DNA of 64,000 nucleotides from an uncultured Oscillospiraceae bacterium (GTDB lineage: Bacteria > Bacillota > Clostridia > Christensenellales > CAG-314), in the NCBI GenBank assembly GCA_964533825.1, contig CAZHMU010000001.1, positions 185,970-249,969 on the forward strand, written 5' to 3'. A program made the position numbers and the translations under genes. The notes under the pieces are model-generated. The model made no database searches and was not told the origin of the DNA. It worked only from the letters and a program-made list of their open reading frames with translations. Position 1 is the stretch's first letter, and each line of letters starts with the position of its first letter. Shown here one piece after another: positions 3,716 through 20,072 of the stretch.

Positions 3716-3725
3716 AAATATACCT

Positions 3726-4463
3726 CTAAATTATGTTTGCGTAAATTTGGTACATAATTACACTACCAGCAACTGCAACGTTAAGTGACTCAAAGTTGTT
3801 TGCCATGGGCAAACAAATCGCGTCATTGGCGTTTGCGCGTGAATAAGCGGAAAGTCCATTGCCTTCGTTACCAAGCACAAGAGCTACATTACCATCAAAC
3901 TTGCAGTCAAAAATGTTACGTCCACCCATATCGCAGGCAAGGATTACATTTTTGGATGCAACATCAAATACTTTGGCAATATCATCCGTTTGGTGCAAGT
4001 TCAAACAAAAATGTGCAGACATTGCGCTACGTACAACCTTTGGTGAGTACAAATCAGCACAATTCACCGCGTAAATATCGGTAAATCCGCAAGCAACTGC
4101 CGTGCGAATCAATGTGCCGATGTTGCCGGGATCTTGCAAGTTGTCCAAAATAAGACAATTACCTTGTGGTTCTACAAGCTCAGCTTGGGGAATTTTGGCT
4201 ACCGCCAACACTCCTTGGCTATTGACTGTGCCAGACATCTTGGCAAACACTCTGTCACTTACGACAATAGCATTTGGAAAATCCAACTCTCCCACAACGC
4301 TTTCTGACACAAAGATGTTTTGCACTTGCGCACCATGAAAAATAGCATCACGCACAAGGCGCTCACCTTCAATTACATAGGATTGATAGAATTTGCGATA
4401 TTTTTTGTCGGCAAGCTTTGCTACTTCCTGCACTTTTGCGTTGTCTGTTGATGTTATGACCAT
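3726..4463 (-). CDS. TrmH/SpoU-family RNA 2'-O-methyltransferase
   Basis: 245 aa. C-terminal SPOUT motifs LVLGNEGNGLS ... IPM..NFESLNVAVAGSVIMY. Confidence 0.85.
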   Translation of the reverse strand: MVITSTDNAKVQEVAKLADKKYRKFYQSYVIEGERLVRDAIFHGAQVQNIFVSESVVGELDFPNAIVVSDRVFAKMSGTVNSQGVLAVAKIPQAELVEPQGNCLILDNLQDPGNIGTLIRTAVACGFTDIYAVNCADLYSPKVVRSAMSAHFCLNLHQTDDIAKVFDVASKNVILACDMGGRNIFDCKFDGNVALVLGNEGNGLSAYSRANANDAICLPMANNFESLNVAVAGSVIMYQIYANII

Positions 4464-4473
4464 GATTTACTAA

Positions 4474-4505
4474 ATAACAACAAAGGGCTTTTGTAGGAAA
4501 AGCCC
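4474..4505 (-). terminator. Intrinsic terminator after rplT
   Basis: Stem gggctttt/aaaagccc (4485-4505) with loop gtagg. On the minus strand it is followed by the T-rich tract tttgttgttattt. Confidence 0.55.
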
Positions 4506-4517
4506 CTAAAGTTGCGA

Positions 4518-4871
4518 CTATTTCAAGTTTGCTTTTGCAGTTTCAGCAAGAGATGCAAATGTAGCTGCATCACTTACAGCGATTTCTGCAAGAGATTTAC
4601 GGTTGAGTTCAATACCAGCAACCTTCAAACCGTGCATAAATTTGGAGTAGGAAAGTCCGTTTGCGCGTGCTGCAGCGTTGATACGAGCAATCCAAAGGCT
4701 ACGCATATCACGTTTGCGAAGACGACGACCAACATATGCATAGTTGCCACTCTTCATAACCGCTTGACGAGCAATGCGGTAGTTTGTGGATTTAAGACCA
4801 AAGTAACCTTTGGCAGCTTTCAAAATCTTTCTGCGTTTTTTAACGGCTGTAACGCCTCTCTTGATTCTCAT
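4518..4871 (-). CDS. rplT: 50S ribosomal protein L20
   Basis: [25 protein letters not shown]... is a typical L20. 117 aa. Confidence 0.97.
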
Positions 4872-4886
4872 TGATTAGCCCTCCTC

Positions 4887-5081
4887 TTAGTATGGCAACA
4901 TGCTCTTAACAGTTGCCGCTTTTGTATCGTGAACGTAAGCTGTACTGCGAAGATTGCGTGTTCTCTTGGTTGTCTTTTTGCCAAGCTTGTGGTTTTTGTT
5001 GCATTGTGCGCGCTTAACTTTGCCGGATTTCAAAACGACAAATCTTTTTTTGGATGCGCTATGTGATTTTTGTTTAGGCAT
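4887..5081 (-). CDS. rpmI: 50S ribosomal protein L35
   Basis: MPKQKSHSASKKRFVVLKSGKVKR...; 64 aa; lies between infC and rplT. Confidence 0.95.
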   Translation of the reverse strand: MPKQKSHSASKKRFVVLKSGKVKRAQCNKNHKLGKKTTKRTRNLRSTAYVHDTKAATVKSMLPY

Positions 5082-5109
5082 TTGTTTACCCTCCTATAGT
5101 GTACAATGA

Positions 5110-5616
5110 TTAATTTAACGGAACAAGGAACATCGAAATGTTTCTGCCTTCCGTAGTTGGCTGTTTGTCAATTTTTGCAACGTCTTTCAAGATTTCTGCA
5201 AAGCGTTTCATAACTTCCACACCTTGGCTTGCGTATGCTTGTTGGCGACCGCGCATACGAATTGTGGCTTTAACTTTGTTGCCATCTTTCAAGAACTTAC
5301 GTGCGATGTTGGCTTTGGTTTGCAAATCGCCAACGTCAATGGTCATAGAAAGCCAAACTTCCTTGACTTCGATAACCTTTTGGTTGCGTTTCATTTCCTT
5401 TTCACGCTTGGTTTGCTCGTACTTGTACTTGGAGTAATCCATAATTTTGCAAACTGGTGGAACGGAGTTTGGTGAAATCTTGACAAGGTCAAGTTCCAAT
5501 TCGTCCGCCATCTTTTGCGCTTCGTAAGCTGATACAATACCGAGTTGTTGTCCATCGCTACCGATAAGGCGTACTTCCTTATCACGAATTTGCGTGTTGA
5601 TTTGAAGCTCTTTGAT
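5110..5616 (-). CDS. infC: Translation initiation factor IF-3, with a non-canonical ATC start
   Basis: The ORF-track piece (MADELELDLV...PPVCKIMDYSKYKYEQ...) lacks the IF-3 N-domain. The frame stays open up to an in-frame TAA at 5634-5632. ATC at 5616-5614 sits 8 nt after AGGAGG (5630-5625). It adds IKELQINTQIRDKEVRLIGSDGQQLGIVSAYEAQK, the conserved IF-3 N-terminus. Confidence 0.9.
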   Translation of the reverse strand: MKELQINTQIRDKEVRLIGSDGQQLGIVSAYEAQKMADELELDLVKISPNSVPPVCKIMDYSKYKYEQTKREKEMKRNQKVIEVKEVWLSMTIDVGDLQTKANIARKFLKDGNKVKATIRMRGRQQAYASQGVEVMKRFAEILKDVAKIDKQPTTEGRNISMFLVPLN

Positions 5617-5770
5617 AGTCGTGTCCTCCTGTTAGACAAATAAAAAAGTGTGGCATCAAGAATATACCACACCAACAAAATTTGCGCCCAATTTGGCACA
5701 AAGTAATTGCGTATTAGTTAACTGACGAAGGTAATCCGGCAGTGAGAAATGGTATTTCTTCTTGAATTGC
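5617..5770 (-). promoter_or_regulatory. infC-operon 5' leader with an intrinsic attenuator (L20-leader-like)
   Basis: About 150-nt leader between the predicted -10 box and the infC SD. In the minus-strand RNA, a 9-bp hairpin (5672-5648, one G.U pair) is followed by U6 (5647-5642) just upstream of the SD. This layout matches L20-mediated attenuation in Firmicutes. The L20-binding fold itself was not verified. Confidence 0.4.
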
Positions 5771-5776
5771 AATGGT

Positions 5777-5805
5777 ATTATAGCAAAAAGTGGCGACAAA
5801 GTCAA
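5777..5805 (-). promoter_or_regulatory. Sigma-A-type promoter (TTGACT-17-TATAAT) for infC-rpmI-rplT
   Basis: Minus strand: TTGACT (5805-5800), 17-nt spacer, TATAAT (5782-5777). Confidence 0.45.
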
Positions 5806-5917
5806 ACGATTTATCACCACTTTTTTGTGTCATTTTTGTAAATCTGCAAATTGTTTGACACTTTGTATACCGCATTGTGATTGTCCACAAAATGCCAAAA
5901 TAGACAATTACAAAACA

Positions 5918-6790
5918 CTACCTATGCTTTGCGTAGAAACAAACGCCCGCGCCGTTTGGTCCGCAGTGACTACCTGCTGTTGGGTTGACTACGACAATTT
6001 CGATGTTGAGGCCATCACCAAAACGCTCAACAAGCATATCCTTGAGTTGATTGGCAGTTGCTATATCATCCGTATGACCGATGATTACACGGTGATTGTA
6101 GATATCTTCCTGTAAATCTTCCACATACTGCAAAATGCACTTAAGAGTTTTGCGCTTGCCAGTTGCTTTGTCCACGTTAGACATCATGCCATCTGCACTC
6201 ATGTTCAAGATGGGACGAATACCAATTAGATTACCCATCAAAGCCGTAATACCAGTTACACGGCCACTCTTGCAGAAAAAGTTGAGATCGTTTGCAAAAA
6301 AGTACGCGGCAAATTTGTTGACATTTTCCTTTGCCCAGGCAACCATCTCCTCAGCAGTTGCTCCAGCCTTGTACATATCGCCCACTTCACAAACAATATT
6401 ATAACTGCAAAGGGTGATGGCGTTGGTATCTATGGTATAAAACTTGCGCTCGGGATACTTTGCAAGAAGTTCATTGACTGCCAAGTCCATAGCATTGAAC
6501 GTTCCGCTCATTGCACGAGAAAAGTGAACATACAAAATGTCGTCGCCATTGCGAAAATGTGGCTCAAAGTAGGAAATGTATTTTTCTGGACTGATGGCAA
6601 AAGTTTTAGGAACAACACCAGTGCGCAGGGTATCGTAGAAAGATTTACTGTCAAATTGAGTGTAGTCTTCGTATGGGTAGACTGTCTCTTGTCCGTCAAT
6701 TTGGTAAGGCATACTTATCATATGATAGCCATACTCGTTGCATTTTTCCAACGAAAGATCGCAATCGCTATCGGTAAAAAGCACTAACAT
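5918..6790 (-). CDS. DegV-family fatty-acid-binding protein
   Basis: MLVLFTDSDCDLSLE... (DegV TDS motif); 290 aa counted from ATG 6790, which follows AAAGGAG. The ORF-track start at 6814 has no RBS. Confidence 0.88.
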   Translation of the reverse strand: MLVLFTDSDCDLSLEKCNEYGYHMISMPYQIDGQETVYPYEDYTQFDSKSFYDTLRTGVVPKTFAISPEKYISYFEPHFRNGDDILYVHFSRAMSGTFNAMDLAVNELLAKYPERKFYTIDTNAITLCSYNIVCEVGDMYKAGATAEEMVAWAKENVNKFAAYFFANDLNFFCKSGRVTGITALMGNLIGIRPILNMSADGMMSNVDKATGKRKTLKCILQYVEDLQEDIYNHRVIIGHTDDIATANQLKDMLVERFGDGLNIEIVVVNPTAGSHCGPNGAGVCFYAKHR

Positions 6791-6953
6791 ATTTTTTCTC
6801 CTTTGTGATGACACAAATTAAGCAGTAAACCGAACTGCTGTTGCGCCAGTTTGTGCTAATATTATAGAACGTGAAAATAAACTGTCGGTCAATATTACGT
6901 AAACTTTAGGTCAACAAAGGCTTCACTCGGAATTGAATTACAAAGCATTGCTA

Positions 6954-6984
6954 ACAAAAAAATGCACGGACAAAAGCCCGTGCA
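6954..6984 (-). terminator. Intrinsic terminator after the 494-aa orphan gene
   Basis: Stem tgcacgg/ccgtgca (6963-6984). On the minus strand it is followed by a U-run (A-run 6954-6962). It starts 6 nt after the stop at 6990. Confidence 0.6.
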
Positions 6985-6989
6985 AAGTT

Positions 6990-8474
6990 TTAGTTGATTT
7001 TCTGTAAAGTATCGCCACAAAGGTAGGTGTCCAACTTGCAAGTCTCGTCCACGACGCTAACTTGAGCATTATACTTTTTGAGTACAGGCAAAATACCACG
7101 GAAACGATCTAACGCCTTGTTTTTGCTTGGAAGTAGTAAGTCAAAAAACATACCACCATCAGCACAAACACCTTGACCGCACAAAAGAGTTAGATTACTT
7201 TTGTCCTGTTGAACAGAGGTGTTATTGCGGTAGTCAAGATGCCAAAACAAGTCGTTTTGTACAGAGATGACATCTTCCACCTTTGGAATGTATATGTAGC
7301 CAAAGGTGTAGTGAGTTAGCCACAAGGTTGGCGGTCCATCATTTTTGAGATCTTCCTGTGTCATCGTGGAAAGATTTGGCGCATTGGATGCAAGGTGTAC
7401 AATCTTGTCACGATTGTAGAGTGACATGCCAGACATATTTTGACCATCAGTTAGGTCGATGTTGAACATTTGGGGGAAGGGGACTGGGGGTTGCTTGTTG
7501 TAGTAGCGAGTGATGGACTCTACTACGTCTCCGAGAGTGGTAAGAGCAATGTCGCTTTCTATTGCGCGTATGTTGTACCAGGCGTGATACATTTCTTCGC
7601 CAAGAGTACAAGTGAGATAGTTTTCGATATCTTCCAGATACCTGTGCACTTTACGCTCACACTTGCGCATTTTTTCAGGAATAAAAACTCTCAACTCGCC
7701 TTGACTATCTTCCCCACACTCGGTAAAGTAGGCGACCTTGCTCATTTTGTTGAGCTTTGTTTTACCTTTATACTTGTCAACTCCGCCCTTCAAGCAGGGA
7801 ACCATCTTCCAACCATTCTTGACAAACACCGATGGCATATCATTGAAAACTTGCGCTAAAAATTTTATATCAAGGGCGTACTCGGGTACGCTTGCGCACG
7901 CGCGCGCGTACAATACATATTGACCATCCACTACACGACCAAACAGGTCAACGGGAAACATCACATTTGAAAGCTCCTTGTTGAAAATCTTGGACAGCTT
8001 TTTGTCGTTGCGCTTGTCTACGCATTTCTTGATAAGCGCAAATTGTTTTTCTAACTTTGCGCCGATGATGTAGTACAGAATATCATAAAAAATAATTCTA
8101 TCGCCTGGTTGACGACGAAGACAGCACATACCGTCCAAGTCCATTTCGATGTAGTGACCGGCAAGATCCGATGGGTCGTTGCTGTAGGAACTGCAACCAA
8201 CGCACTTTTCAGAAACGTGCTTGCGAAGGATTGTGTCGTACTCGTCCTTGGTGCAGACAAATACATTGCAAGGCGCAAGGTGACTTGGCTCATCAATTTG
8301 TACTTCTGCAGTTGCAATTAAGCTGTCAATAAAGTATGGCGGAATACTGCCAAGTTGCTCGTCACCAACACCAAGCTTTTGCAAAGTAACTGTGCCTTGC
8401 AGTTGCTCGATGGCCTTGTCATTTGGCAAAATATAGTAGTTGAAGTGGTAAAAAACCGCTTTGATTTGTTGCAT
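6990..8474 (-). CDS. Hypothetical Cys-rich protein (494 aa), no recognisable domain
   Basis: Long uninterrupted ORF. ATG 8474 follows CAGGAG at 6-nt spacing (MQQIKAVFYHFNYYILP...). It has its own terminator. Many Cys residues (CVGCSS, MCCLRR, CGQGVCADGG), no TM helix and no motif I can name. Confidence 0.6.
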   Translation of the reverse strand: MQQIKAVFYHFNYYILPNDKAIEQLQGTVTLQKLGVGDEQLGSIPPYFIDSLIATAEVQIDEPSHLAPCNVFVCTKDEYDTILRKHVSEKCVGCSSYSNDPSDLAGHYIEMDLDGMCCLRRQPGDRIIFYDILYYIIGAKLEKQFALIKKCVDKRNDKKLSKIFNKELSNVMFPVDLFGRVVDGQYVLYARACASVPEYALDIKFLAQVFNDMPSVFVKNGWKMVPCLKGGVDKYKGKTKLNKMSKVAYFTECGEDSQGELRVFIPEKMRKCERKVHRYLEDIENYLTCTLGEEMYHAWYNIRAIESDIALTTLGDVVESITRYYNKQPPVPFPQMFNIDLTDGQNMSGMSLYNRDKIVHLASNAPNLSTMTQEDLKNDGPPTLWLTHYTFGYIYIPKVEDVISVQNDLFWHLDYRNNTSVQQDKSNLTLLCGQGVCADGGMFFDLLLPSKNKALDRFRGILPVLKKYNAQVSVVDETCKLDTYLCGDTLQKIN

Positions 8475-8681
8475 TGTTTTGCTCCTGAAGAAATAGTCAA
8501 AGATGCACACCTTGAGCAAAATTGTGCCCAAAACGTGCATTTTTGAGTTGTTTTTAGTAATTTTGATATACTATGTCTGTCAAAGTATGCTACAAAACTA
8601 TACATTTGACAAATTGTAAAGTGCGATGGACTATTTTTAGTATTACAACCTTTTTGGATATGTTTGATACAACTTCATCCA

Positions 8682-11141
8682 CTATATTGCACTGTCGCCA
8701 GATCTATGTGTAGAGTTGATAGGCTGCAAAACTTTGCCCACTTGTACGTTTACCAAATCGTATGCTTGAGTCCACTTGTCCAACATATCGTATGGGCAAA
8801 TGCAAGTGTGCTCTTTGTTGTGACGACGGAAGGATTTTTCCGCCTTGCCATAATCGGCATAAATCCAACCATTTGCCATATGAAAACGGTTCCAGCGAAG
8901 GTGCTCTACTCTTTCGCAATACTCGCGCTCGGCAACTTCGTCAACATGGCGGTAGTTAATGGCAAAGCTGTATGCACTGCGATTAGACTCGCGGGTAAAT
9001 GGTGTCACATCCAACCAAATGTCTTTGCGATACACGTCATCTTGCGCAATAAGGATCCAGTTGCCATCCCCATTAGCAAGACTATCGATAATGGATTGTT
9101 CTTTGACGGAAAGTTGACCTTGTGCACTACGCTCAACTTCCATTGCGTGAGAATTGATATTGTACATATAGTTGTACATACTTGCACTTTCGTCATCAAC
9201 AATGTTGTCGTATGACCAAATACTCTCACGGCAACCAAAGGAAACTACATTGAAGTGATCAGCAAAATACTGTTCGTCTTCCGTTGACCAGTTAAGACGA
9301 TAGATGTTCTTTTCATCGCGGATATGTACAAAGATTGTGATAATTTCCTTGTCTAATGTACCACGAGATTTGCCAGTCAAAAGCACCTCGTGCTTGAAAT
9401 CGTCAATCAAGATGTTTGCCATAACAAGGTTATCTTCGTCGTTGCCCATAGATACAACAAAGGAATTGTAGTGAACACTGTCCTTGTCGAAAAGTCCCAG
9501 AGATTTGTCAATACTGTTCATAAAGTCTTGACGCAAGCAGGATACGCGATGGTAGTCGATAATAGGAAATGCCATATCGTCCCAAACTTGGTCACGAGTC
9601 ATTTTGAGCGAAGAAGCTTGTGCCCTATCATAGATGTATTGCAATGCGTCGTTTGATGCACCCTTACCCCATTTGATGAGATCATCGTTAGCAACAGGCA
9701 TATGGTCGACATTATCGGACCTACACAAGAATAATGGGTGAGCATAGGCAAATTCGCCAGAGCGTTTGTCGGCGCCTATATCGTAAACATCGGCAATAAA
9801 TTGCGCTGAAACGTATCTATCATCCACTTTTGTGACATTGGATGTTGCAACAAATATACTCTTTAGTGCATATTGACCAGTTTTGCCAAAGCCAAATATT
9901 GCTGTGCGGTAAACGTTGCCTACACCTGGCATTGTGCTTTGACGGAAACGGTTGTAATCTTGTTTTGTATCGCAAAAATCAAATTTTTCTTGCCAACGGC
10001 TAACAAGGTCATCGCCTGTCAATTTTGCTTCACTCAAAATGTGCAGTTGGATACTGCGCAAAATCATTTGCTTTTTGCTGATTGTTTTGCCGTATTGGTC
10101 AACTACACTATCATTTTCGATGCTGTTTGCCTTGAAAAACTCATCCACAATAGCAGAAATGCGAGTGTTGTAGAACTCGTAGTTGATGTCACCGTGCGTC
10201 AACAAATAATAGTTGACAACCGTAGGGATAGGGCTTGTGTCTACAGTTTTTTTGCTAAATTTACTCAAACATTTTGCGTAGTCGTTGAGCAATGCGTAGA
10301 CATCGTCAAAAATAAAGTTACTGTTGTGGTTTTCCGCTGCGTACAAATTTTCGTCATTACGCAAAGAGAAGATGTGAACCATCTTGTTGTGATTGTATCC
10401 CTTGTCACGTTTTTGACAGCCCGTTTTAGTGTAATTTAGCTTTTTGAGTAAAGAAAGTTCTCTGTCCCTATCGGCAACTTTGCCATAGGACCAATAGATA
10501 TAGCCACGGTCCATAATTTGTCGATGCAGTTCGTTTTTGTGGTCGAAGGCTTCCAACTCGTTGCCCATAAACAAAATTGCATAGCTACCGCGCGCGCCAT
10601 TTTTCTCGGCACTTTCAATGTCAGCAGCCATGACAAGAGCTTCTTCGGTAACGTCAGGAAAGATGTACACTGTATCAAACTTGCGCAAAAATCCACCGAT
10701 TTTGAAAAAGGAATACACTTCGTAGCTGACACAAGTGGACAAAATGAGCAATGTGGAAACACCTGCATAGGCAACAGCACCATAGTACAAAATTTGTGCG
10801 CCAACGTCAATCATGCCCAAAAAATCGTTGGGTGCATAGGTTCCTTCGAAGGTAAGACCACCAATCAAAGCGTATAGTGCAAACAAACCACTGGATATAC
10901 CATCCCAAACGGAATCAAATCCACCGGCATCTTGTTTCACGTACAGTATTGCAACAATAAAACGAGCAATAAAGCTTACGGCAACTGTACCGCCCATGAT
11001 GATAATTTCGTTCATAAATTTGCGCTCTGGATGCTTTTGACGCAGTTTGAAGTAGGCAAGCAAAGTTACCCCCTCCAAAAGTGCCAGTACCAGTACGGCA
11101 AGTATTCCGAAAAGTATGGAAACAAGAATATCTGTCCACAT
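8682..11141 (-). CDS. Membrane protein with about 5 N-terminal TM helices, two Rossmann/RCK(TrkA-N)-like modules and a C-terminal RyR-repeat-like motif
   Basis: 819 aa; RBS AAAGGAG. Residues 1-150 are hydrophobic helices. Residues 412-430 (YRTAIFGFGKTGQYALKSI) form a beta-GxGxxG-alpha unit. FVVSMGNDEDNLVMANILID is TrkA-N-like. Residues 736-800 (EHLRWNRFHMANGWIYADYG...HNKEHTCICPYDMLDKWTQAYDLVNV) follow the bacterial RyR-domain pattern (EHxxW...GWxYG...K.HPxLvPYdeL...YD). Confidence 0.7.
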   Translation of the reverse strand: MWTDILVSILFGILAVLVLALLEGVTLLAYFKLRQKHPERKFMNEIIIMGGTVAVSFIARFIVAILYVKQDAGGFDSVWDGISSGLFALYALIGGLTFEGTYAPNDFLGMIDVGAQILYYGAVAYAGVSTLLILSTCVSYEVYSFFKIGGFLRKFDTVYIFPDVTEEALVMAADIESAEKNGARGSYAILFMGNELEAFDHKNELHRQIMDRGYIYWSYGKVADRDRELSLLKKLNYTKTGCQKRDKGYNHNKMVHIFSLRNDENLYAAENHNSNFIFDDVYALLNDYAKCLSKFSKKTVDTSPIPTVVNYYLLTHGDINYEFYNTRISAIVDEFFKANSIENDSVVDQYGKTISKKQMILRSIQLHILSEAKLTGDDLVSRWQEKFDFCDTKQDYNRFRQSTMPGVGNVYRTAIFGFGKTGQYALKSIFVATSNVTKVDDRYVSAQFIADVYDIGADKRSGEFAYAHPLFLCRSDNVDHMPVANDDLIKWGKGASNDALQYIYDRAQASSLKMTRDQVWDDMAFPIIDYHRVSCLRQDFMNSIDKSLGLFDKDSVHYNSFVVSMGNDEDNLVMANILIDDFKHEVLLTGKSRGTLDKEIITIFVHIRDEKNIYRLNWSTEDEQYFADHFNVVSFGCRESIWSYDNIVDDESASMYNYMYNINSHAMEVERSAQGQLSVKEQSIIDSLANGDGNWILIAQDDVYRKDIWLDVTPFTRESNRSAYSFAINYRHVDEVAEREYCERVEHLRWNRFHMANGWIYADYGKAEKSFRRHNKEHTCICPYDMLDKWTQAYDLVNVQVGKVLQPINSTHRSGDSAI

Positions 11142-11294
11142 ATTGAAAACTCCTTTTGTATGACAAATTAACTATATGTAATTGCAAAACCAGCTTGTTT
11201 TGTAACCGAAAATATTTTTGCAACGTAAATAAAGCTTGCATTGCGCAGGTTTTGCGATAAGTCATTATTCTACGCAAAACTAATTCTATTTGCA

Positions 11295-11303
11295 TATTAT
11301 ACC
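11295..11303 (-). promoter_or_regulatory. Extended -10 element (TGGTATAAT) upstream of the RyR-motif gene
   Basis: The minus strand reads TGGTATAAT, 154 nt upstream of ATG 11141. This implies transcription independent of the TIR gene and a long 5' UTR containing an 8-bp hairpin (gttttgcg/cgcaaaac). Confidence 0.35.
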
Positions 11304-11331
11304 ACAAATACAACAAAAGTTGTATCATTTG

Positions 11332-14300
11332 TTAGTACTTTCTCATTGCTTCGTACACTCGTTGTAGTAAGTTGGAACTTTCGTTGTCGTTTGGATCTTT
11401 GTCCAAAAGCATTTGAAGAACCTGCTCAGCCTTTTGCAGCGGCTCTATGCCAGCAAATTCGCCAAGGTAATAACAATAGTTGGCGAGCGATTTCCAATCG
11501 AGTGTATCGTTGGTTATATCAACAAGTTGCAGAGCCATCTCTATTGCTGGGGCAAAGTTTTCAATTGCCTCATCCAGCTGGCCCCTAAAGTAGTAGAAAA
11601 GACCCAACTGACAGCAAGCCTCAGCATGGAAACGAGTGGCCTTGATGTAAGATTTATCTACACTACCAAATCCATCGTCTTTGGGAGCGATCATACTGCG
11701 ACCTTGCTCATACAGTTGTTTTGCAATGTTGATGTACTCAATAAAGTTTTTACTGTCGTCAAGGTGCATATAGCAACGTGCAAGGTTCTCGCAATCGCAA
11801 GCGCAGGCAATGAGATTGCAGGCAGTACCATCTTGTTGAGCAATGGCAAGGCTATTAGATACAACCTGCAAAGCTTGTTCAAGTTGCGTTTCGTAGTCTT
11901 GCTCATCTTGATGCATTTCCGCCATCTTGCGACAAACATCCGCAACGACACTTTGATCGCACTGGCCGCTTTCCACAAAATTGTTAGCAAATTGCAATGC
12001 TTTGTCAAAGTACAATTTTGCTTGGTCCTTTTCGCCAAGCGCAAGACAACTTTTGGCAATGTTGCAGTAGATTTCTGGTATAAACTCAACATCAGCATAG
12101 CCAATAGCGCAAAGTTCATCCATGTGAGCAACGAGAGTATCCGCTGCCTCAATTTGACATTGCTTGGCTTTGTTGTATTGTTGCAAGTCGGTATACAAAC
12201 CACCCAACATATAATTGACTGTGTACAAACCAAGAAGATCCGACATTTGAGCGTTTTGCGCCATAGACTTGTAAATGGTCAGCTCTTGTTGGTAGTAGTC
12301 TACAGCCTTATCCAACTCGTCTAAATCGTAGTAGAACTCAGCAATAGCGGTCAACAATCCTGTGTAGGAGTTGCGCACCTTCACTGAGTCGGCACGATCC
12401 AAAAGACCCTGTGCTATATCCAAACCGTTCGTAAAGCATTGCAAAGCCCTGTCATCATCTTGTTGGTATGTGTGATAGTGAACGCCCAACTGCTTGAGAT
12501 CCACAACACATTGACGCCAGCTATCGACAGAATCGTGTTTTTGGGCGTAATCAAGGTCAATCTCGAAAGCTTTTAGATAGTATTCTAACGCTTTGTCGTC
12601 AGCCTTGCCATCGCACAAACCTGCCAGAACATAGTAGAACGGAGACATTTGCATTTGAGTGTGCTCATCTTTGAGTTCATCGTAGACACCCAACAAAACT
12701 TGCAAGCCCTTTTCATAAGACTGTTTACACTCGGGCCTTTCGTCAGCATATACATTGCCCAAACGATAGTAGCAATCAGCCAGCAAAACACGGAACTTTG
12801 GCGCTGTATTACTTTCGACAAGACTCAACAACAATTTTTCCGCTTTGAGCAACATTTCGATTGCACGTTCGGTATTGCCAATCTCGTCGTACATAATGCC
12901 AGCGGAGATGTAGCAGGAGGAAAGTTGATATTTTGTTTCCCCAATGGGAACGTCCTCCACTATTGTTTCGCGCAAATACACCGCTTTTAGTATGTAGTCT
13001 TCAGCATCTTGATAGTTGTCCAAAATGCGAGCATTGTCCGAAAGACTTTGCAAAGTCCAGGCAAGTGTTTGACGAGCATCAAGGCTGTCATTTTGATCGG
13101 TAAGTTGGATGGAAATATCCAATGATTTTAGATGCCAATCGCGTTCGCCGACAAAGTCCTCTTGCATATGACACAAATCCGCCATGCGCGAATAGGCCAC
13201 GAGCAACCAGTCTTGCGACTCAGCATCATTTTGCTCTTGGTTGAGTTTTTCTGCAATGGCCAATGCTTGTGTTGCCACTTGTTGTGCCTTGGGTATGTCG
13301 CAGGTGCTTTTGCATACATCAAACATATCAGTGTAGCATTGCATGAAAGAGAACAAATACTCATCGTCTTTAGAGATATCCTTGATAAGATTTAGTATTG
13401 TCAAGCGCGCTTCGTAGTACTTCATTGCCTCTTCGAAGTTACGCAAATCTTCGTGACATCGTCCCAAATTGCAATAGCAGGTTACTAAATCGTTGTACGT
13501 TTCTACATTTTGAGATTTTTCCGCCAACTGTTCAGCATAGTGCAAGCCCCAACGATAGTTTTCCAAAGCATCTGCGTAGGCAAATGTCTTGCGATACATT
13601 TCGCCAATAAAGTTGTAAGCATTGCAAAGCATACTGGCAGGTAGGTATCTTTCTGGCTCGGCTTTAGACCAATCATTGCAAAAGGCTTTAAGTTGTTGAT
13701 AAATTTCGATAGATTTTTCATATCGAAGCAAGGCATTGTACAAATCTGCAAGAGAAATCAACTCTGTTACGTAATCGCATTTTGTATCATAGTCAGCATT
13801 GTCAATATCAACAGTGAGCGTATCTACCAAGCGTTGTTGCCACTCTATAGCTTTGTTTACGTCACGCTCCACACCCTTGCCCTGCTTGTACATATGCACA
13901 ATGGTTTTATAAGAGTCAACGTGGCTTTTTTCTGCACAATAAGTGAGCATATCAAGCGCACGTGCGTGGTCAACTTCTACATCGATACCATCCAAATACG
14001 CCAAAGCAAGCAAATGGTAGCGAGGTAAATCGTCCTTAAGCTTGTTGTTACGCGGGAAAAAGCAAGACAACAGCTGCATAAGCATTTGTTCATCCGCTTC
14101 TTTGATTATTTGGGGCAGATTTTCGTACTGGCTTGCAAGTAGCGAGTAGTCAGTCAAAGCCATTTCTACAGGCAAAACAAGTTTACCAGACTTGACGGCC
14201 ATTGGATACTCCACCGCTTGAACATAGTTATCCTCGCACACAAGGTTTGGTGTGACCGCAAGCAAAAAAAGTTGGCTTTTGTTCAATGCATCGCCAATTG

Positions 14301-14931
14301 CGTTGTTGAAGTCCTCGCCAGGCACAAGGTACTCGTCGTACCAAATTGCCACGTCACGACAAGCTTCACTTTTGTGGATGAGTCGCATCAGACGTTGCGC
14401 GTGAGCGCGGTCCTTTTTGCGATAGCTCAAAAAGATGTAGGAACGAAAAGCAGCACGGATGACATTAGCCTTTTCGTCGCCTACAAGCACACTACCCAAA
14501 AAGCTTTGCAGTTTTTCTTGATAGGAGATTGCCGTTTCGTCCTTTTGATGTTTTTCAAGATATTGCGAATTGCCACAAACACTGTTGAAAAGCTGATCAA
14601 GACCTTGTTCTTGCATCAAAGGCAAAACAGGGATATGGCGTTTGATGGCAATATGGTAGTCAGCAATGCCCTTGTTGTGACCGAAAAGCAGTTTGGATGT
14701 AACTGGCATAACAAATAGTTGCATATCCGACAGACGACTTTCCCACTCTGCCGTATCTCCAGAGCCATCTGGTTGCTCATCGTAGAAAACGGTGCAGTTT
14801 ACCAGATTCAAAATTTCCTTTGACACACTTTCAAAATAGGTAGCAAAGTCGTCAGGATGACAGCAAAAGTAAACTCTTGGCTTGCCTTGTGGAGAAACAT
14901 CTTGACCGCGTGTCTTGAAATTGAGTAGCAT
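11332..14931 (-). CDS. Tandem TIR-domain protein fused to Sel1 and a long TPR-like repeat array
   Basis: 1199 aa; RBS AAGGAG. Residues 164-257 (YIFLSYRKKDRAHAQ...VAIWYDEYLVPGEDFNNAIGDAL..SQLFLLAVTPNLV...NYVQAVEYPMA) fit TIR_2. Residues 18-108 (RVYFCCHPDDF...VFYDE...LFVMPVTSKLL...IADYHIA) form a degenerate TIR-like copy. Residues about 300-350 (YLDGIDVEVDHARAL...MYKQGKGVERDVNKAIEWQQRL) are Sel1 repeats. The rest is helical TPR-like repeats. No Walker A motif seen. Confidence 0.85.
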   Translation of the reverse strand: MLLNFKTRGQDVSPQGKPRVYFCCHPDDFATYFESVSKEILNLVNCTVFYDEQPDGSGDTAEWESRLSDMQLFVMPVTSKLLFGHNKGIADYHIAIKRHIPVLPLMQEQGLDQLFNSVCGNSQYLEKHQKDETAISYQEKLQSFLGSVLVGDEKANVIRAAFRSYIFLSYRKKDRAHAQRLMRLIHKSEACRDVAIWYDEYLVPGEDFNNAIGDALNKSQLFLLAVTPNLVCEDNYVQAVEYPMAVKSGKLVLPVEMALTDYSLLASQYENLPQIIKEADEQMLMQLLSCFFPRNNKLKDDLPRYHLLALAYLDGIDVEVDHARALDMLTYCAEKSHVDSYKTIVHMYKQGKGVERDVNKAIEWQQRLVDTLTVDIDNADYDTKCDYVTELISLADLYNALLRYEKSIEIYQQLKAFCNDWSKAEPERYLPASMLCNAYNFIGEMYRKTFAYADALENYRWGLHYAEQLAEKSQNVETYNDLVTCYCNLGRCHEDLRNFEEAMKYYEARLTILNLIKDISKDDEYLFSFMQCYTDMFDVCKSTCDIPKAQQVATQALAIAEKLNQEQNDAESQDWLLVAYSRMADLCHMQEDFVGERDWHLKSLDISIQLTDQNDSLDARQTLAWTLQSLSDNARILDNYQDAEDYILKAVYLRETIVEDVPIGETKYQLSSCYISAGIMYDEIGNTERAIEMLLKAEKLLLSLVESNTAPKFRVLLADCYYRLGNVYADERPECKQSYEKGLQVLLGVYDELKDEHTQMQMSPFYYVLAGLCDGKADDKALEYYLKAFEIDLDYAQKHDSVDSWRQCVVDLKQLGVHYHTYQQDDDRALQCFTNGLDIAQGLLDRADSVKVRNSYTGLLTAIAEFYYDLDELDKAVDYYQQELTIYKSMAQNAQMSDLLGLYTVNYMLGGLYTDLQQYNKAKQCQIEAADTLVAHMDELCAIGYADVEFIPEIYCNIAKSCLALGEKDQAKLYFDKALQFANNFVESGQCDQSVVADVCRKMAEMHQDEQDYETQLEQALQVVSNSLAIAQQDGTACNLIACACDCENLARCYMHLDDSKNFIEYINIAKQLYEQGRSMIAPKDDGFGSVDKSYIKATRFHAEACCQLGLFYYFRGQLDEAIENFAPAIEMALQLVDITNDTLDWKSLANYCYYLGEFAGIEPLQKAEQVLQMLLDKDPNDNESSNLLQRVYEAMRKY

Positions 14932-15106
14932 AGTAGCTCCTTTTGAGAAAAACTTAAAGTTTGTTGCTTAAAGTATAACACAATATAAACACAAATGCAC
15001 TACTTTTTGTAAAAATGTAAGAATAATATTTAATTAATTAAGTAACATAGTGATAATGGTATCAGTATTACTTGTCCGTTGATACTTCGTCTGCAATAGT
15101 GGCAAT

Positions 15107-15150
15107 TTACCATCACGTCACCAACTGCTTACCATCATGTCACCAACTGC
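15107..15150. repeat. Tandem 22-bp direct repeat (2 copies, 1 mismatch)
   Basis: ttaccatcacgtcaccaactgc / ttaccatcatgtcaccaactgc, read directly. It lies 176-219 bp upstream of the TIR gene start. Confidence 0.9.
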
Positions 15151-15304
15151 TTGGTAGGCAAAGGCACACTTTGCATCAACAATTCGTTGGCGAAAGAGAC
15201 TAATTAGGCTGTAAATAAGTTTGCACTACCTAACTAAAGGTCATCAATATTGTCTGCGTAAATAAAATATTTCGATATTACACAAAAAAGATGGTTAAAA
15301 ACTG

Positions 15305-15333
15305 TTGCAATTTTTAGCAAACTTTGGTAAACT
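15305..15333 (+). promoter_or_regulatory. Possible promoter (TTGCAA-17-TAAACT) for the tRNA-Cys/tRNA-Leu pair
   Basis: Hexamers with 17-nt spacing, 15 nt upstream of tRNA-Cys. Confidence 0.35.
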
Positions 15334-15348
15334 ATACAAGACTCGTGT

Positions 15349-15422
15349 GGCACCATAGCCAAGTGGTAAGGCAGAGCTCTGCAAAAGCTTCACCCCCAGT
15401 CCGAATCTGGGTGGTGCCTCCA
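15349..15422 (+). tRNA. tRNA-Cys (GCA)
   Basis: Cloverleaf by hand: acceptor ggcacca/tggtgcc, anticodon stem gagct/agctt, loop cTGCAaa, T arm cccag-tccgaat-ctggg, encoded CCA. Confidence 0.92.
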
Positions 15423-15463
15423 AAACAAGCGTAGAGTGAAAAGCACTTTACGCTTTTATTTTT

Positions 15464-15550
15464 GCTGGTATGGCGGAATAGGCAGACGCAAGGGACTTAA
15501 AATCCCTCGGTAGAAATATCGTATCGGTTCGACCCCGATTACCAGCACCA
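15464..15550 (+). tRNA. tRNA-Leu (TAA), type II with long variable arm
   Basis: Acceptor gctggta/taccagc, D arm gcg-gaataggcaga-cgc, anticodon stem aggga/tccct with loop cTTAAaa, 15-nt variable arm, T arm atcgg-ttcgacc-ccgat, A73, encoded CCA. Confidence 0.92.
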
Positions 15551-15551
15551 A

Positions 15552-15581
15552 AAAGACTTTGCAAATTGCAAGGTCTTTTTT
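15552..15581 (+). terminator. Intrinsic terminator after the tRNA pair
   Basis: 12-bp stem aaagactttgca/tgcaaggtcttt (one G.U pair) followed by T6. Confidence 0.65.
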
Positions 15582-15840
15582 GTTGGCGTAAATTACGTGA
15601 CACAGACTTTTTTATGCCGAACCTGCGCAATTCGCCGCTAAAAAACAACAGGACAAGAAAGTTGATGTAGCAAAAAGCAACATAATACAAATGAAAATTG
15701 CTATATTTTAGTGCCGAAAAAGTTAAAACAAGAAACTTGTTTGTCAGCTTACCCGTCTAAATCGCGTTACCTCACTCTATAACTTTTGGAACGTAGTATT
15801 TTGAGTATTTTATAAGTTATTGCAAAAACACAAAACAAAA

Positions 15841-15871
15841 AGCGAACGATTTATAATTTTTATCGCTCGCT
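15841..15871 (-). terminator. Intrinsic terminator after yloV
   Basis: Stem agcgaacgat/atcgctcgct (1 mismatch). The minus strand is followed by tttttgttttgtg. Confidence 0.5.
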
Positions 15872-15911
15872 TTTTATATGTTAATAATTTATTAGAAGTT
15901 GCAAAAATAGG

Positions 15912-17582
15912 TTATTCTACGCTCAAAACATAGTAGTACAAGGGTTGTCCGCCATAGTGAAGGATAACTTCTGCATCTGGGTGAGAGTCTTGCAATTTTT
16001 CAGCAAAAGCTTCAGCCTCGTCTGCTGTAACGTCAGCACCATAGTACAAAGTGATAACTTCCTTGTCATCTGTCAACATACTGTCAATAAGTTCAGTAGT
16101 AACAGCTTCAATGTCTTTACCAGTTTTGACAATTTGTCCCTTGTCCAAACCGATAACATCGCCTTTCTTGATTGTAAGATTGCCCACAACTGTATCACGA
16201 ACAGCGTAAGTAACTTGGCCGGCATCCAAATCTGTAAAGGCGTCGGTCATGTTTTGAAGGTTTTCGTTCAATGGAGCATCAGCGTTGTACGCAATTACCG
16301 CTGCAAGACCCTGTGGAATATCCTTAGTGGGAAGAACAAAGATGTGGCGGTTTTTGATCAATGTACGAGATTGCTCTGCGGACAAAATAATATTTTTGTT
16401 GTTTGGCAAAATGATAACGTTTTCCGCATTGATTTTGCGCACTGCTGCAGCAATGTCATCTGCAGATGGGTTCATTGTTTGACCACCTTCAACAACTTGG
16501 TCAACAAGCAAATCCTTGAAAATCGCAGAGAAACCATCGCCAGCGCAAACAGCAAGCAAACCAACGGGCTTGCGTTCTGCTTCGTACTTAGCGCGGAGTT
16601 GTCTGTTTTGCTCCATCATATTTTCAATTTTTACTTTGTCAAGTTCACCAAGTGTCAAGGCTTTTGTCAAAGCTTTACCTGGTGTGTTGGTGTGAACGTG
16701 CACCTTGATAAGGCTCAAGTCACCAATACAAATTACGGAGTTACCAATTTCGTTGAGGTAATCACGAAGTTTGTCGATATCAGTTACTGTTGTGCGCTTT
16801 TTGATGTTGGTTACAAAGAACTCTGTGCAGTAGCCAAAGTCAAGCTCTTCCAAAGAGTCGTAGTCAACGATCATTTCGTCATCTGGGAACTCGGAGCTGT
16901 TTTGATCGCCCTTGCTTTGAAGTTCGTATTGTTCGCCACCGGAAATTTCTTGATCAAGGTAACCCATGATGAGTCCCTTGAACAGTGTGATGAGTCCGTA
17001 TCCACCACTATCTACTACGCCTGCGCGCTTGAGAGGTTCGAGCATATCTGGAGTCTTTTCCAAAACTTCTTCGCCCTTTTCAAGAACGTAGTTCATCAAC
17101 TTTTCGATACTTGTTGTACGCTTTGCTTCGTCAACGGCAGCCTCCGCCATACCGCGGATAACTGTCAAAATTGTGCCTTCCTTAGGTTTGCTTACAGCGC
17201 GGTAAGCAAGTTCAGCGCCTTCCTTCAATCCATTTGCAAATTGACGTGTGTTGCAATCGTCACACTTTGCAATGACATTGGCAAAGCCTTTCAAAATTTG
17301 TGACAAAATAACACCGGAGTTACCTCTTGCACCACGCAATGCGCCCTTTGCAAGTTTGTCAGCAAATGTAGACATTGATGTGTCTGTCAAAGAGGAAATT
17401 TCCTTAACAGCGGACATCATTGTCAAAGACATATTTGTACCTGTATCTCCATCGGGTACAGGGAATACGTTCAAAGCGTCAACTTTCGCTTTGTTTATTT
17501 CCAAAAGTTTACCACCAGCGATAAACATACGTTTCATCACCGATGCTGTTACGTGAGTTTTTACTGTATGTGCAGAAGCCAT
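15912..17582 (-). CDS. yloV: DAK2-domain fusion protein YloV
   Basis: 556 aa. The N-terminus has LNVFPVPDGDTGTNMSLT (DhaL/Dak2 motif). It lies downstream of an Asp23 gene and opposite rpmB, the classic Firmicute arrangement. Confidence 0.9.
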   Translation of the reverse strand: MASAHTVKTHVTASVMKRMFIAGGKLLEINKAKVDALNVFPVPDGDTGTNMSLTMMSAVKEISSLTDTSMSTFADKLAKGALRGARGNSGVILSQILKGFANVIAKCDDCNTRQFANGLKEGAELAYRAVSKPKEGTILTVIRGMAEAAVDEAKRTTSIEKLMNYVLEKGEEVLEKTPDMLEPLKRAGVVDSGGYGLITLFKGLIMGYLDQEISGGEQYELQSKGDQNSSEFPDDEMIVDYDSLEELDFGYCTEFFVTNIKKRTTVTDIDKLRDYLNEIGNSVICIGDLSLIKVHVHTNTPGKALTKALTLGELDKVKIENMMEQNRQLRAKYEAERKPVGLLAVCAGDGFSAIFKDLLVDQVVEGGQTMNPSADDIAAAVRKINAENVIILPNNKNIILSAEQSRTLIKNRHIFVLPTKDIPQGLAAVIAYNADAPLNENLQNMTDAFTDLDAGQVTYAVRDTVVGNLTIKKGDVIGLDKGQIVKTGKDIEAVTTELIDSMLTDDKEVITLYYGADVTADEAEAFAEKLQDSHPDAEVILHYGGQPLYYYVLSVE

Positions 17583-17613
17583 TTTATGTTCCTCTCAAAT
17601 TTTCGTATAGTAA

Positions 17614-17964
17614 TTAAAGTTTGACACCCACCACATGTACGTCGATTGAGTCGACAATCATGCCAGTGAAGCGTTCCAGACTGTATTTTACTGAATTTTT
17701 CAAACTTGAGGATACTGCGGAAATGGGTAGACCATACTTGAACTTAACAAACAAATCCACATAGATGCGGTCTCCCTTGGTTGCAATACGAACTCCTCTG
17801 CCTTTGCCGTTGCGTTTGAACAAATCAGTAAAGGAATCGGAAAAACTAAATGGAACCATTTCTACCACACCATAGCACTCCGTAGCGAAATAACTTGCCA
17901 AGTTTGCAATAGCATCATCTGATACGGTGATGGTACCGTAGGCGTTACGTGTTCTCAATGCCAT
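17614..17964 (-). CDS. Asp23/Gls24-family envelope stress protein (YloU-like)
   Basis: 116 aa; GTITVSDDAIANLASYFATECYGVVEM is the Asp23 signature. Confidence 0.88.
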   Translation of the reverse strand: MALRTRNAYGTITVSDDAIANLASYFATECYGVVEMVPFSFSDSFTDLFKRNGKGRGVRIATKGDRIYVDLFVKFKYGLPISAVSSSLKNSVKYSLERFTGMIVDSIDVHVVGVKL

Positions 17965-18187
17965 TTAATTTTACCTCCTGAATAATTATCTCATATATTT
18001 TACATTAAATTGAAACATTTAACAAGTCTTTTTGAGTAAAATGCGAAAAAAATTTCTTCAAATTTTATTTTTTTGCGACATTTTAATTTTTTTATAACTT
18101 TTTGCTTGCCAAAATCGCAAAACAGTGGTATTATATTCAAGCATTAAGCAGAACAGCTAATTTTTTTTCCTATGCGGAGGTGTTAAT

Positions 18188-18373
18188 ATGTCCAAAGTAT
18201 GCGCTATTTGTGGTAAAGGCAAGATGTCCGGTAACAAGGTAAGTCACTCCAACAGAAAGACTCCTAAAACCTACAATGCCAATTTGCAAAAGGTAAAAGT
18301 GGAAATTGATGGTAAAACATCCACAGAATACGTTTGCACACGTTGCATCAGAACAGCTAATAAAGCTGACTAA
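18188..18373 (+). CDS. rpmB: 50S ribosomal protein L28
   Basis: MSKVCAICGKGKMSGNKVSHSNRKTPKTYNANLQKVKV...; 61 aa; RBS GGAGGTG. Confidence 0.95.
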   Translation: MSKVCAICGKGKMSGNKVSHSNRKTPKTYNANLQKVKVEIDGKTSTEYVCTRCIRTANKAD

Positions 18374-18386
18374 TCATTGCAAGCAC

Positions 18387-18417
18387 TAGCCTCGAGTTTT
18401 CTCGGGGCTATTTTTTT
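18387..18417 (+). terminator. Intrinsic terminator after rpmB
   Basis: 10-bp stem tagcctcgag/ctcggggcta followed by T7. Confidence 0.7.
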
Positions 18418-18743
18418 GTTTTAGGCAGATATTGTCGCAACTGCGCTCCTGTATTGAAATTGACAATGGAACCTACTATCAAATTCATTGCGATTGTTAG
18501 TTCATTGTAATACTTAGTATAAAAATACCCCGTAATACTTCGTTCGGTCGGTTGCACCGCCGGTAAAGGTTCAATTTGCAATAGATTTGCACCAATTTTG
18601 CCCTAAAATGTGCGCAAATTTACACAGTTTCGCTAAATTTGCCATTTACTATTTACAAACAGCTATAAAATGGTGTATAATGATATAACACTATTTACGA
18701 AAGCAGAATAGACTAACACAAGAGATAAACCATAGGAGGACTT

Positions 18744-19718: not shown

Positions 19719-19734
19719 TTACAACAAAATAGCA

Positions 19735-19768
19735 AAACGAGCACCCCATCAAGGATGCTCGTTTTTTT
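19735..19768 (+). terminator. Intrinsic terminator after the PAP2 gene
   Basis: Stem aaacgagca/tgctcgttt followed by a T-run. Confidence 0.7.
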
Positions 19769-20072
19769 GTGCAATTTTTAGCTGTTTGATTACCTTTTTC
19801 CTATCACAAGTTTGCCTAATAAGAGACGCAAGATGCTACCCAAAAACTTGGGAACTTTGATACAAACGATTTTTGTCTTCACCACTTTCTCCATTACTGT
19901 AGTATATGAACAGACCAGTCAAAGTGTGACAAAAATTGGTGTCTTTCGGTAAAATTTGATTAATTTTTGCCAAAAACTTGGTAAAATCGAGCAACACAAG
20001 GCGACTTAAATTCAAACACACTGTTAGCGTTGAAGTACTTTACAACAAGGTTAATACCCACCAATAAAGAAA

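Follow-up and report, generated by a model that had tools for sequence, protein, structure and literature searches.

Three open reading frames (ORFs) on the minus strand, here named A, B and C, were analysed in a 64,000-nt stretch of DNA (the window; contig CAZHMU010000001.1 of assembly GCA_964533825.1, positions 185,970 to 249,969) from an uncultured Oscillospiraceae bacterium. They encode a protein with tandem TIR domains and Sel1/TPR repeats, a predicted membrane protein with a C-terminal RyR domain, and a clade-restricted orphan. The block is located between degV/infC-rpmI-rplT and tRNA-Cys/tRNA-Leu/fakA (yloV)/asp23 (Table 1), the products of the flanking genes being DegV, IF3, L20 and SpoU on the left and FakA/YloV and Asp23 on the right. 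This layout agrees with an earlier note, made from the sequence alone, which had placed three minus-strand genes with spacers of about 190-210 bp between housekeeping genes on both sides: the spacers measure 190 bp between A and B and 207 bp between B and C (with the second-methionine start for C). The terminator that it had read after the orphan and the extended -10 box that it had read upstream of the RyR gene were both recovered. Its statement that the usual TIR partners are absent stood, no SIR2/SLOG, STAND NTPase, cyclase or Argonaute being found within the block by Pfam or PADLOC, as did its expectation that PADLOC would return no complete known system, the sole match being a weak one of A to ThsB (2.4e-6); NCBIfam likewise pointed to no known system. 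An Rfam scan of the spacers and the region detected the two tRNAs and nothing else, with no regulatory RNA among the matches. A 22-nt tandem direct repeat (TTACCATCA[C/T]GTCACCAACTGC, two copies, 15107-15150) is found within the 417 bp that separate tRNA-Cys from gene A and could be a regulator-binding site.

Table 1 Genes, protein domains and transcription signals of the A-B-C block and the adjacent tRNAs, in window coordinates.
Feature	Position	Strand	Description	Basis
Terminator-like hairpin	6963..6984	-	intrinsic-terminator-like, directly 3' of C, closing the block; 9-bp stem, 6 GC pairs, then TTTTTTTGTT	
Gene C	6990..8474	-	494 aa, clade-restricted orphan	start set by homologues
Gene B	8682..11141	-	819 aa, predicted membrane protein with C-terminal RyR domain	ORF, family alignment, AF2 model
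B, helical ESNR region and RyR/R12 domain	8727..9044	-	aa ~700-805; H747, W750, H778, D795	family profile vs PDB
B, second Rossmann/RCK-like domain	9222..9920	-	aa ~408-640; G417-F-G-K-T-G422, acidic D451/D454	alignment, motif scan
B, first RCK/Rossmann-like domain	10032..10679	-	aa ~155-370; no glycine-rich loop	model, Foldseek
B, membrane domain	10701..11141	-	aa 1-147; TM1, K/R-rich loop, TM2, amphipathic helix 78-97, conserved loop, TM3	model, hydropathy, charge
B, conserved loop	10842..10862	-	G94-G-L-T-F-E-G100	alignment
Extended -10-like box	11296..11304	-	TGgTATAAT, in A-B spacer, upstream of B	read from sequence
Gene A	11332..14931	-	1199 aa, tandem TIR and Sel1/TPR	ORF, Pfam
A, Sel1/TPR repeat array	11335..14031	-	aa ~300-1199	Pfam TPR_12, TPR_8, TPR_1, Sel1; PDB Sel1/TPR matches
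A, TIR domain 2	14047..14460	-	aa ~158-295	Pfam TIR_2
A, TIR-like domain 1	14482..14892	-	aa ~14-150	hhalign vs domain 2
Extended -10-like box	14972..14980	-	TGtTATACT, upstream of A	read from sequence
tRNA-Cys	15349-15422			
tRNA-Leu	15464-15550			
TM, transmembrane helix; AF2, AlphaFold2.

Proteins encoded by the block

Residues 166-258 of A match Pfam TIR_2 at 35.7 bits (cut-off 28), and many TPR and Sel1 matches follow, reaching the C-terminus. The N-terminal 150 residues form a second TIR-like domain (hhalign of domain 1 against domain 2, probability 97.1%, E = 6e-11), which bears out the tandem TIR architecture proposed earlier. Comparison by sequence with solved TIR structures gave no match for the single sequence and a weak one for the profile (AbTIR, E = 0.03), and the TIR call for A therefore rests on Pfam. 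At the position of the catalytic Glu in the family consensus, domain 1 carries an Asp. In domain 2, E241 (VEYPMA motif; codon 14209-14211) is invariant among 26 homologues and is aligned with the corresponding Glu in validated ThsB TIRs from Thoeris types VI, X and XI; it is the putative catalytic Glu. Pfam recognised no NTPase domain (NACHT, NB-ARC or AAA_16) in A, unlike STAND/Avs-type TIR receptors, and the Sel1/TPR array is presumably the part that recognises a ligand or trigger. The TIR-TIR-Sel1 module has at least 667 homologues at ~50% identity, mostly of 370-650 aa, and is common in gut Clostridia. A is evolving faster than B and C, with an omega (ratio of non-synonymous to synonymous substitution rates) of ~0.15 against its orthologue in locus L013. 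At a separate locus (L042, 463-7395), the gene for an A-like TIR-TIR-Sel1 protein has, at a distance of ~3 kb, another TIR gene and a CAP12-PCTIR_TIR plus prok_STING gene, in what looks like a small TIR immune gene cluster.

Relatives of B numbered 22 in a word-indexed search and 206 cluster representatives at E<1e-30 in an exhaustive profile search, the latter mostly full-length (750-1100 aa); the hosts are uncultured Clostridia (Christensenellaceae, Oscillospiraceae, 'Fimimonas'). Pfam applied to 47 diverse members of the family recognised RyR alone, in 19 of them (PF02026, E<=0.01), and the family is effectively undescribed. B itself, as a single sequence, scores 15.5 bits against Pfam RyR, below the gathering score of 27.4, whereas the family profile matches solved RyR domains (6uhi, E = 1.8e-11; 3nrt, E = 1.1e-5), so that the RyR motif previously read in B proved genuine despite its sub-threshold score. 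PADLOC returned no match for B, PHROGs a weak match of the RyR region to phrog_5154 (unknown function), and IMG/VR no relative. A mobile or phage origin of B was considered and rejected, given the lack of an IMG/VR relative and the flat GC content, and a search for TIR fusions of the Rosetta-stone kind found no TIR domain in seven long members of the family. In some long members (P0118, P0124), the RyR domain is followed by a C-terminal peptidase M20/M28 domain. B is under strong purifying selection (omega 0.06-0.08).

Conservation within the B family was assessed in a 17-sequence alignment, which was also the source of the profile, and in the 47 diverse members. Conservation across the family peaks at the RyR pocket and not at the Rossmann loop: H747, W750, H778 and D795 are invariant in the 17 sequences; among the 47 members, W750 and H778 never vary, and H747 and D795 are kept in at least 90%. 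The phage RyR-domain protein RyDEP, described in a 2026 preprint, hydrolyses the cyclic ADP-ribose (cADPR) isomers 2'cADPR and 3'cADPR and thereby defeats Thoeris, with ligand contacts at H75/W78/H100/D117 (PMC13232231). Nanomolar binding of 3'cADPR, 2'cADPR and cADPR is reported for RyDEP homologues and for RyR Tad, an anti-Thoeris phage protein likewise described in 2026 (PMC13232231; 10.64898/2026.06.04.730250), the contacts in RyR Tad being H129/W132, K147/H154 and K170/D171 (10.64898/2026.06.04.730250). Neither preprint describes a cellular RyR-domain effector (PMC13232231; 10.64898/2026.06.04.730250). The B family keeps the phage-protein spacing H-x2-W ... H-x16-D, the mapping of H747/W750/H778/D795 onto the RyDEP residues being by motif spacing, not superposition, and these kept pocket residues make the RyR domain of B a candidate binder of an ADP-ribose (ADPR)-derived signal.

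The AlphaFold2 (AF2) model of B (predicted local distance difference test (pLDDT) score 82.9, predicted template-modelling score 0.82) places in order a membrane domain, two alternating strand-helix domains, a helical region with the ESNR motif and the RyR domain. Foldseek returned RCK-channel folds for this model at modest scores, with GsuK (one entry NAD-bound), Slo1/BK and Slo2.2 as the best matches, followed by NAD-binding Rossmann enzymes and TrkA. Three segments are strongly hydrophobic (aa 1-34, 45-70 and 117-140), with a K/R-rich loop between the first two, and agree with the multi-transmembrane (multi-TM) protein that had been described before; the several GxGxxG modules attributed to it reduced to a single canonical one, GFGKTG at aa 417-422. 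All 17 aligned sequences keep G417, G422, D451 and D454. Between the second and third hydrophobic segments, helix 78-97 is less hydrophobic and is followed by GGLxFEG, the best-conserved motif of the membrane region, in which G94, F98 and G100 are invariant and E99 nearly so in the 17 sequences; across the 47 members, F98 is kept in 44, E/D99 in 44 and G100 in 41. If the C-terminus is cytoplasmic, the topology would fit the M1-P-M2 arrangement of P-loop channels with an extra N-terminal helix.

The longest ORF of gene C (6990..8540) would encode 516 aa, and all 14 homologues begin at the second Met, giving 494 aa. Its homologues fall into 14 clusters, all at least 53% identical and restricted to one narrow clade, in which C is always directly downstream of B (present in L001, L002, L012, L013 and L014). 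An omega of 0.07 indicates a real gene. C matched nothing in Pfam, NCBIfam, PADLOC or PHROGs, and its AF2 model (pLDDT 74.8) returned generic ferredoxin-like fragments from PDB and BFVD in Foldseek, the best at E = 0.07 and 0.016. Its description as a Cys-rich orphan stood as to the orphan and softened as to the cysteines, which are mildly frequent (16 in 494 aa, 3.2%), a fraction equal to that in A. None of the genes downstream of B in other lineages is similar to C. We therefore do not retain the proposal of A-B-C as one three-gene system, C being limited to a narrow clade and without a recognisable fold, and regard C as a lineage-specific accessory tightly linked to B and outside the conserved TIR/RyR logic.

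Recurrence and variation of the locus

Relatives of B were compared at 38 loci from genomes and metagenomes, of which the metagenome scan added at least nine; ORFs were called at each and searched with a local TIR hidden Markov model. The 479 ORFs flanking B homologues include 13 TIR ORFs, and each of the 13 shares its strand with B, at a distance of no more than four ORFs. In representative loci, TIR was found in 8/156 near ORFs and in 0/194 far ORFs (Fisher p=0.0014). Dereplicated at 60% identity, the B lineages number 23, of which 7 have a TIR neighbour.

The TIR partners differ in architecture, as recognised by Pfam. The window shares its TIR-TIR-Sel1/TPR protein with L002, L012 and L013, and the partners elsewhere are TIR-NACHT-LRR (L006-8), TIR-AAA_16 of STAND type (L023), TIR-HD_3 directly upstream of B (L027), a short TIR of 350 aa (L028), two short TIRs (L030) and TIR-TPR (L040). 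The catalytic-Glu column is kept in all of them, and an NTPase domain is present in the partners of L006-8 and L023. In the distant locus L040, the TIR-TPR gene is followed by a B-like 625-aa protein (hhalign probability 94.9) and then by a 509-aa RyR channel protein that matches Pfam Ion_trans_2 (4e-14, filter TTVGYGD) and RyR (6.8e-6). Judged from its sequence, this last protein combines a genuine K+-channel pore with RyR within a TIR operon, a fusion that argues for a gating role of the RyR domain. L030 encodes the B architecture as two pieces, one with the TM part and the other TrkA_N-like with RyR.

Other gene arrangements were observed around B homologues and RyR domains. On an Arcobacter plasmid (L056, CP146529.1, 4961-8684), a split module consists of a 1-TM TrkA_N protein (Pfam TrkA_N, 5e-9), a 166-aa RyR protein and a 728-aa DUF4062-TPR protein, whose DUF4062 N-terminus aligns weakly, in register, with the TIR profile, including the Glu; the module adjoins a type I restriction-modification (R-M) subunit, an integrase, a recombinase and a transposase. 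We found no enrichment beside known defence genes, this distant split module being the sole R-M/recombinase context. Downstream of the B homologues in L019 (12550-21159) and L027 (12523-21289) lies a conserved trio that encodes an 828/842-aa protein with no Pfam match, a 1222/1242-aa Tubulin_2-like protein (E ~2e-59) and a 797/771-aa protein. One clade carries, directly upstream of B, a paralogous family of 710-763 aa (L028 7647-9938, L029 7751-9985, L048 991-3198, L050 1238-3370) that matches the B profile in its C-terminal half only, which suggests that these paralogues and B form heteromeric pairs. In L003 (5618-12777), a B homologue (39% identical) has upstream a 1179-aa AAA/FtsH-like (Peptidase_M41) gene, a 156-aa ORF and a stand-alone 96-aa RyR gene, and downstream a 155-aa ORF, with no TIR present. 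On a Methylobacterium plasmid (L057, NZ_CP107533.1, 3754-6486), an RyR domain (Pfam 1.1e-14) forms the C-terminal part of an AAA/MoxR-like protein of 910 aa, whose gene has a very large SIR2-family gene in its vicinity.

In all close relatives the position of the block between fakA/tRNAs and infC is syntenic. Nucleotide identity is 74-78% in the block against 85-94% in the flanks (window 3000-20000 against L001, L012 and L013, same genome pairs), and synonymous divergence (dS) is about threefold higher, at 1.5-2.5 in the block and 0.55-0.85 in the flanks. This divergence fits old, exchanged alleles, like those of conflict loci, and weaker codon bias could contribute to the raised dS. The NCBI taxonomy assigns the closest named relative, 'Candidatus Fimimonas' in L013 (NCBI taxid 2840648), to Myxococcaceae; the gene content seen here and the remaining relatives (Clostridia, Christensenellaceae and Oscillospiraceae metagenome-assembled genomes) look like Bacillota.

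A candidate signalling pair and its alternatives

We tentatively propose, at a confidence somewhat short of even, that A and B make up a two-component signalling pair resembling Thoeris and of a previously undescribed kind, with A as sensor and synthase and B as an RyR receptor on an RCK-channel-like effector. In this scheme, the Sel1/TPR array of A would recognise a trigger, which is presumably a component of a phage, and the second TIR domain of A (E241) would turn NAD+ into an ADPR-derived signal, for example 2'cADPR, 3'cADPR or cADPR, by analogy with TIR domains generally. By analogy with the phage RyR proteins and their nanomolar binding, the signal would occupy the RyR domain of B at H747/W750/H778/D795; ligand binding there, acting via the tandem RCK/Rossmann gating apparatus, would open a cation pore in the three-helix P-loop-like membrane domain. 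The pore is probably not K+-selective, since the GGLTFEG loop is not a K+ signature. The resulting ion flux may then depolarise the cell and halt growth or phage replication. As the TIR/RyR pairing recurs in unrelated bacteria, it may well represent a new Thoeris-like system and a bacterial counterpart of the debated cADPR-to-RyR pathway of animals. The original suggestion that a TIR-made nucleotide is sensed by the Rossmann/RyR membrane protein thus gained from the TIR genes beside B in 7/23 lineages, the kept pocket and the RCK-like model, and co-occurrence of TIR and RyR genes in related genomes held for these seven lineages; on both counts the remaining 16 of 23, in whose fetched flanks no TIR was found, speak the other way. 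Further points in favour of the pair are the K+-channel-RyR fusion in the TIR operon of L040, the precedent of Thoeris type X with its ion-channel effector, the variable presence of A and the raised divergence of the block, and the related split module beside R-M and recombinase genes.

The 16 lineages are one of several observations that weigh against the proposed pair. A is missing in two of six close relatives (L001 and L014), in which B and C are intact. L001 retains a ~70-aa remnant of the 3' end of A beside the tRNAs, which indicates that A was deleted there. The locus is therefore variable between strains, as the earlier reading required, and A is dispensable: B and C are kept under purifying selection without it, so B does not strictly depend on A. 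B may also have a promoter of its own, to judge from the TGgTATAAT box. In all three contexts inspected, TIR-TIR-Sel1 homologues of A occur without B, and this prevalence fits self-sufficient NADase proteins. Several B homologues lie in housekeeping surroundings, after clpP-clpP or beside rplS or mscS, and the flanks of the A-B-C block are themselves housekeeping genes with no defence genes among them; GC content is flat over the block, with no compositional island. As regards the channel, no Pfam Ion_trans or TrkA_N match was found in the 47 B-family members, the Foldseek scores are modest (E = 2.5e-4 to 6e-3, TM-scores 0.23-0.41), the GGLTFEG loop is placed where a channel selectivity filter sits but is not TVGYG, and the membrane part of B has no significant match to the canonical K+ pore of L040 (hhalign probability 0.2%). 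Moreover, the RyR pocket residues are also kept in proteins that merely sequester or hydrolyse the signal.

Retention of B without A in L001 and L014, the housekeeping contexts of B in many lineages, its promoter-like box and the abundance of short A homologues in contexts without B would all follow if A and B were independent neighbours, A a self-contained TIR-TPR NADase of a sort common in gut Clostridia that would deplete NAD+ unaided once triggered, and B (with C) a nucleotide-regulated housekeeping cation channel, at a tRNA-proximal spot that tolerates insertions. We consider this unlikely, because chance fails to account for at least four unrelated TIR architectures co-oriented with B in 7/23 lineages and for none among 194 distant ORFs, and because it leaves the L040 operon of TIR-TPR and K+-channel-RyR genes unexplained.

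Coupling of A and B through a different input is an improbable alternative. B could read NAD+ depletion by the TIR NADase, or linear ADPR, at the Rossmann/RCK site (GFGKTG...D454) in place of a cyclic signal at RyR, the RCK ring losing its ligand and the pore changing state. The conserved dinucleotide-binding motif of B would suit such a role, the best structural match, GsuK, was deposited NAD-bound, and STAND-TIR and TPR-TIR proteins are usually viewed as NAD+ depleters. However, the RyR pocket and not the Rossmann loop is best conserved in the B family, and short ThsB-like TIRs partner B relatives too (L028, L030).

Somewhat more improbable is a non-immune second-messenger pathway, serving for example stress or ion homeostasis, with the TIR/RyR-channel pair as core genome of the clade. 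Its syntenic position in all close relatives, together with the absence of a compositional island and of defence genes in the flanks, would be in keeping with this, but A is variably present and the block far more diverged than its flanks, the partner TIRs carry NACHT-LRR, STAND and TPR sensors typical of immune receptors, and a related module is found in a plasmid R-M/recombinase island. Very improbable, finally, is that the RyR domain of B acts as a sink or hydrolase for TIR signals, like RyDEP and RyR Tad, forming a host buffer that sets a threshold or ends signalling and not a killing effector: B keeps the positions of the RyDEP catalytic dyad (H747, D795) and a stand-alone 96-aa RyR gene lies beside the B homologue of L003, yet a sponge needs no conserved three-TM domain, invariant loop and two RCK-like domains, and the RyR domain on a canonical K+ pore in L040 argues for gating.

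Beyond the A-B pair itself, a wider reading, which we regard as doubtful, is that the B family comprises RyR-gated cation channels opened by TIR-made cyclic ADP-ribose isomers, with NLR-like TIR receptors (TIR-NACHT-LRR, TIR-STAND, TIR-TPR) signalling through a diffusible nucleotide to a channel encoded by a gene of its own, a counterpart and possibly an antecedent of cADPR-RyR Ca2+ release and of plant TNL signalling to Ca2+ channels. To our knowledge, no cellular RyR-domain receptor for TIR-made cADPR isomers has been described. If true, B would supply this missing receptor for TIR signals and a bacterial counterpart of the debated cADPR-to-RyR pathway, and would offer a tractable 819-aa system (against ~5000 aa) for nucleotide gating at an R12-type pocket. 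Thoeris-type immunity would gain a further class of effector, the large STAND/TPR-TIR proteins, which tend to be dismissed as NAD+ depleters, would become candidate signal generators, and several hundred unannotated membrane proteins of gut Clostridia would acquire a function.

Comparison with known systems

Of the features that mark Thoeris systems, A has a TIR domain with a Glu at the catalytic position (TIR_2, 35.7 bits; E241), and an adjacent co-oriented gene, B, follows on the same strand 190 bp downstream. B belongs to no described Thoeris effector family (ThsA SIR2-SLOG, Macro-TM and others), PADLOC being silent on B and C and Pfam giving a weak RyR match alone. A systematic survey of Thoeris defines types I-XI and 18 putative types, among which type X pairs a TIR with an ion-channel effector, ThsK, and has validated anti-phage activity; its signal molecule is given there as not known, and RyR is unmentioned in its text and in the supplements searched (10.64898/2025.12.03.692087). 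Set against it by description, type X appears to be the nearest named system. In both cases a TIR gene adjoins a membrane protein, which in type X is annotated as an ion channel. The type X TIRs listed in Table S1 of the survey are ~140-aa segments from Vibrio and Bacillus, whereas the TIR proteins here are TPR, NACHT-LRR, STAND or HD fusions of 1000-1290 aa from Clostridia, and B matches no Pfam ion-channel model. Among plasmid and IMG/VR relatives of the type X TIR, the neighbours were Macro-type (type II) or small unidentified genes, with no ThsK channel.

The phage proteins RyDEP and RyR Tad share with B the domain family (PF02026/R12) and the H-x2-W, H, D +17 spacing. They are small, soluble and signal-destroying or signal-sequestering, and so overcome immunity, whereas B is a cellular 819-aa predicted membrane protein with a channel-like body. 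B resembles GsuK, MthK, Slo1 and Slo2, of which GsuK binds NAD, in its predicted order of a pore-like membrane domain followed by two RCK/Rossmann-like domains and in a predicted topology that fits M1-P-M2; it departs from these channels in having GGLTFEG for TVGYG, one more TM helix at the N-terminus and an additional RyR domain at the C-terminus.

In animal ryanodine receptors, a Repeat12-type nucleotide pocket sits on a cation channel, as it would in B, and in both settings a TIR or cyclase would make cyclic ADPR. Direct binding of cADPR to the animal receptors is unproven after decades of debate; the animal receptors and B differ wholly in pore architecture and in size, and the link here is a genomic one. 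In plants, TNL immune receptors signal to helper-NLR Ca2+ channels. The TIR-NACHT-LRR sensor of L006-8, beside a separately encoded putative cation channel, resembles that arrangement; unlike in plants, there is here no EDS1-family intermediary, and the putative channel is of RCK/RyR type, not a CC-NLR resistosome. The placement of a TIR-NACHT-LRR gene next to a putative channel suggests a path that leads from a small molecule to a channel.

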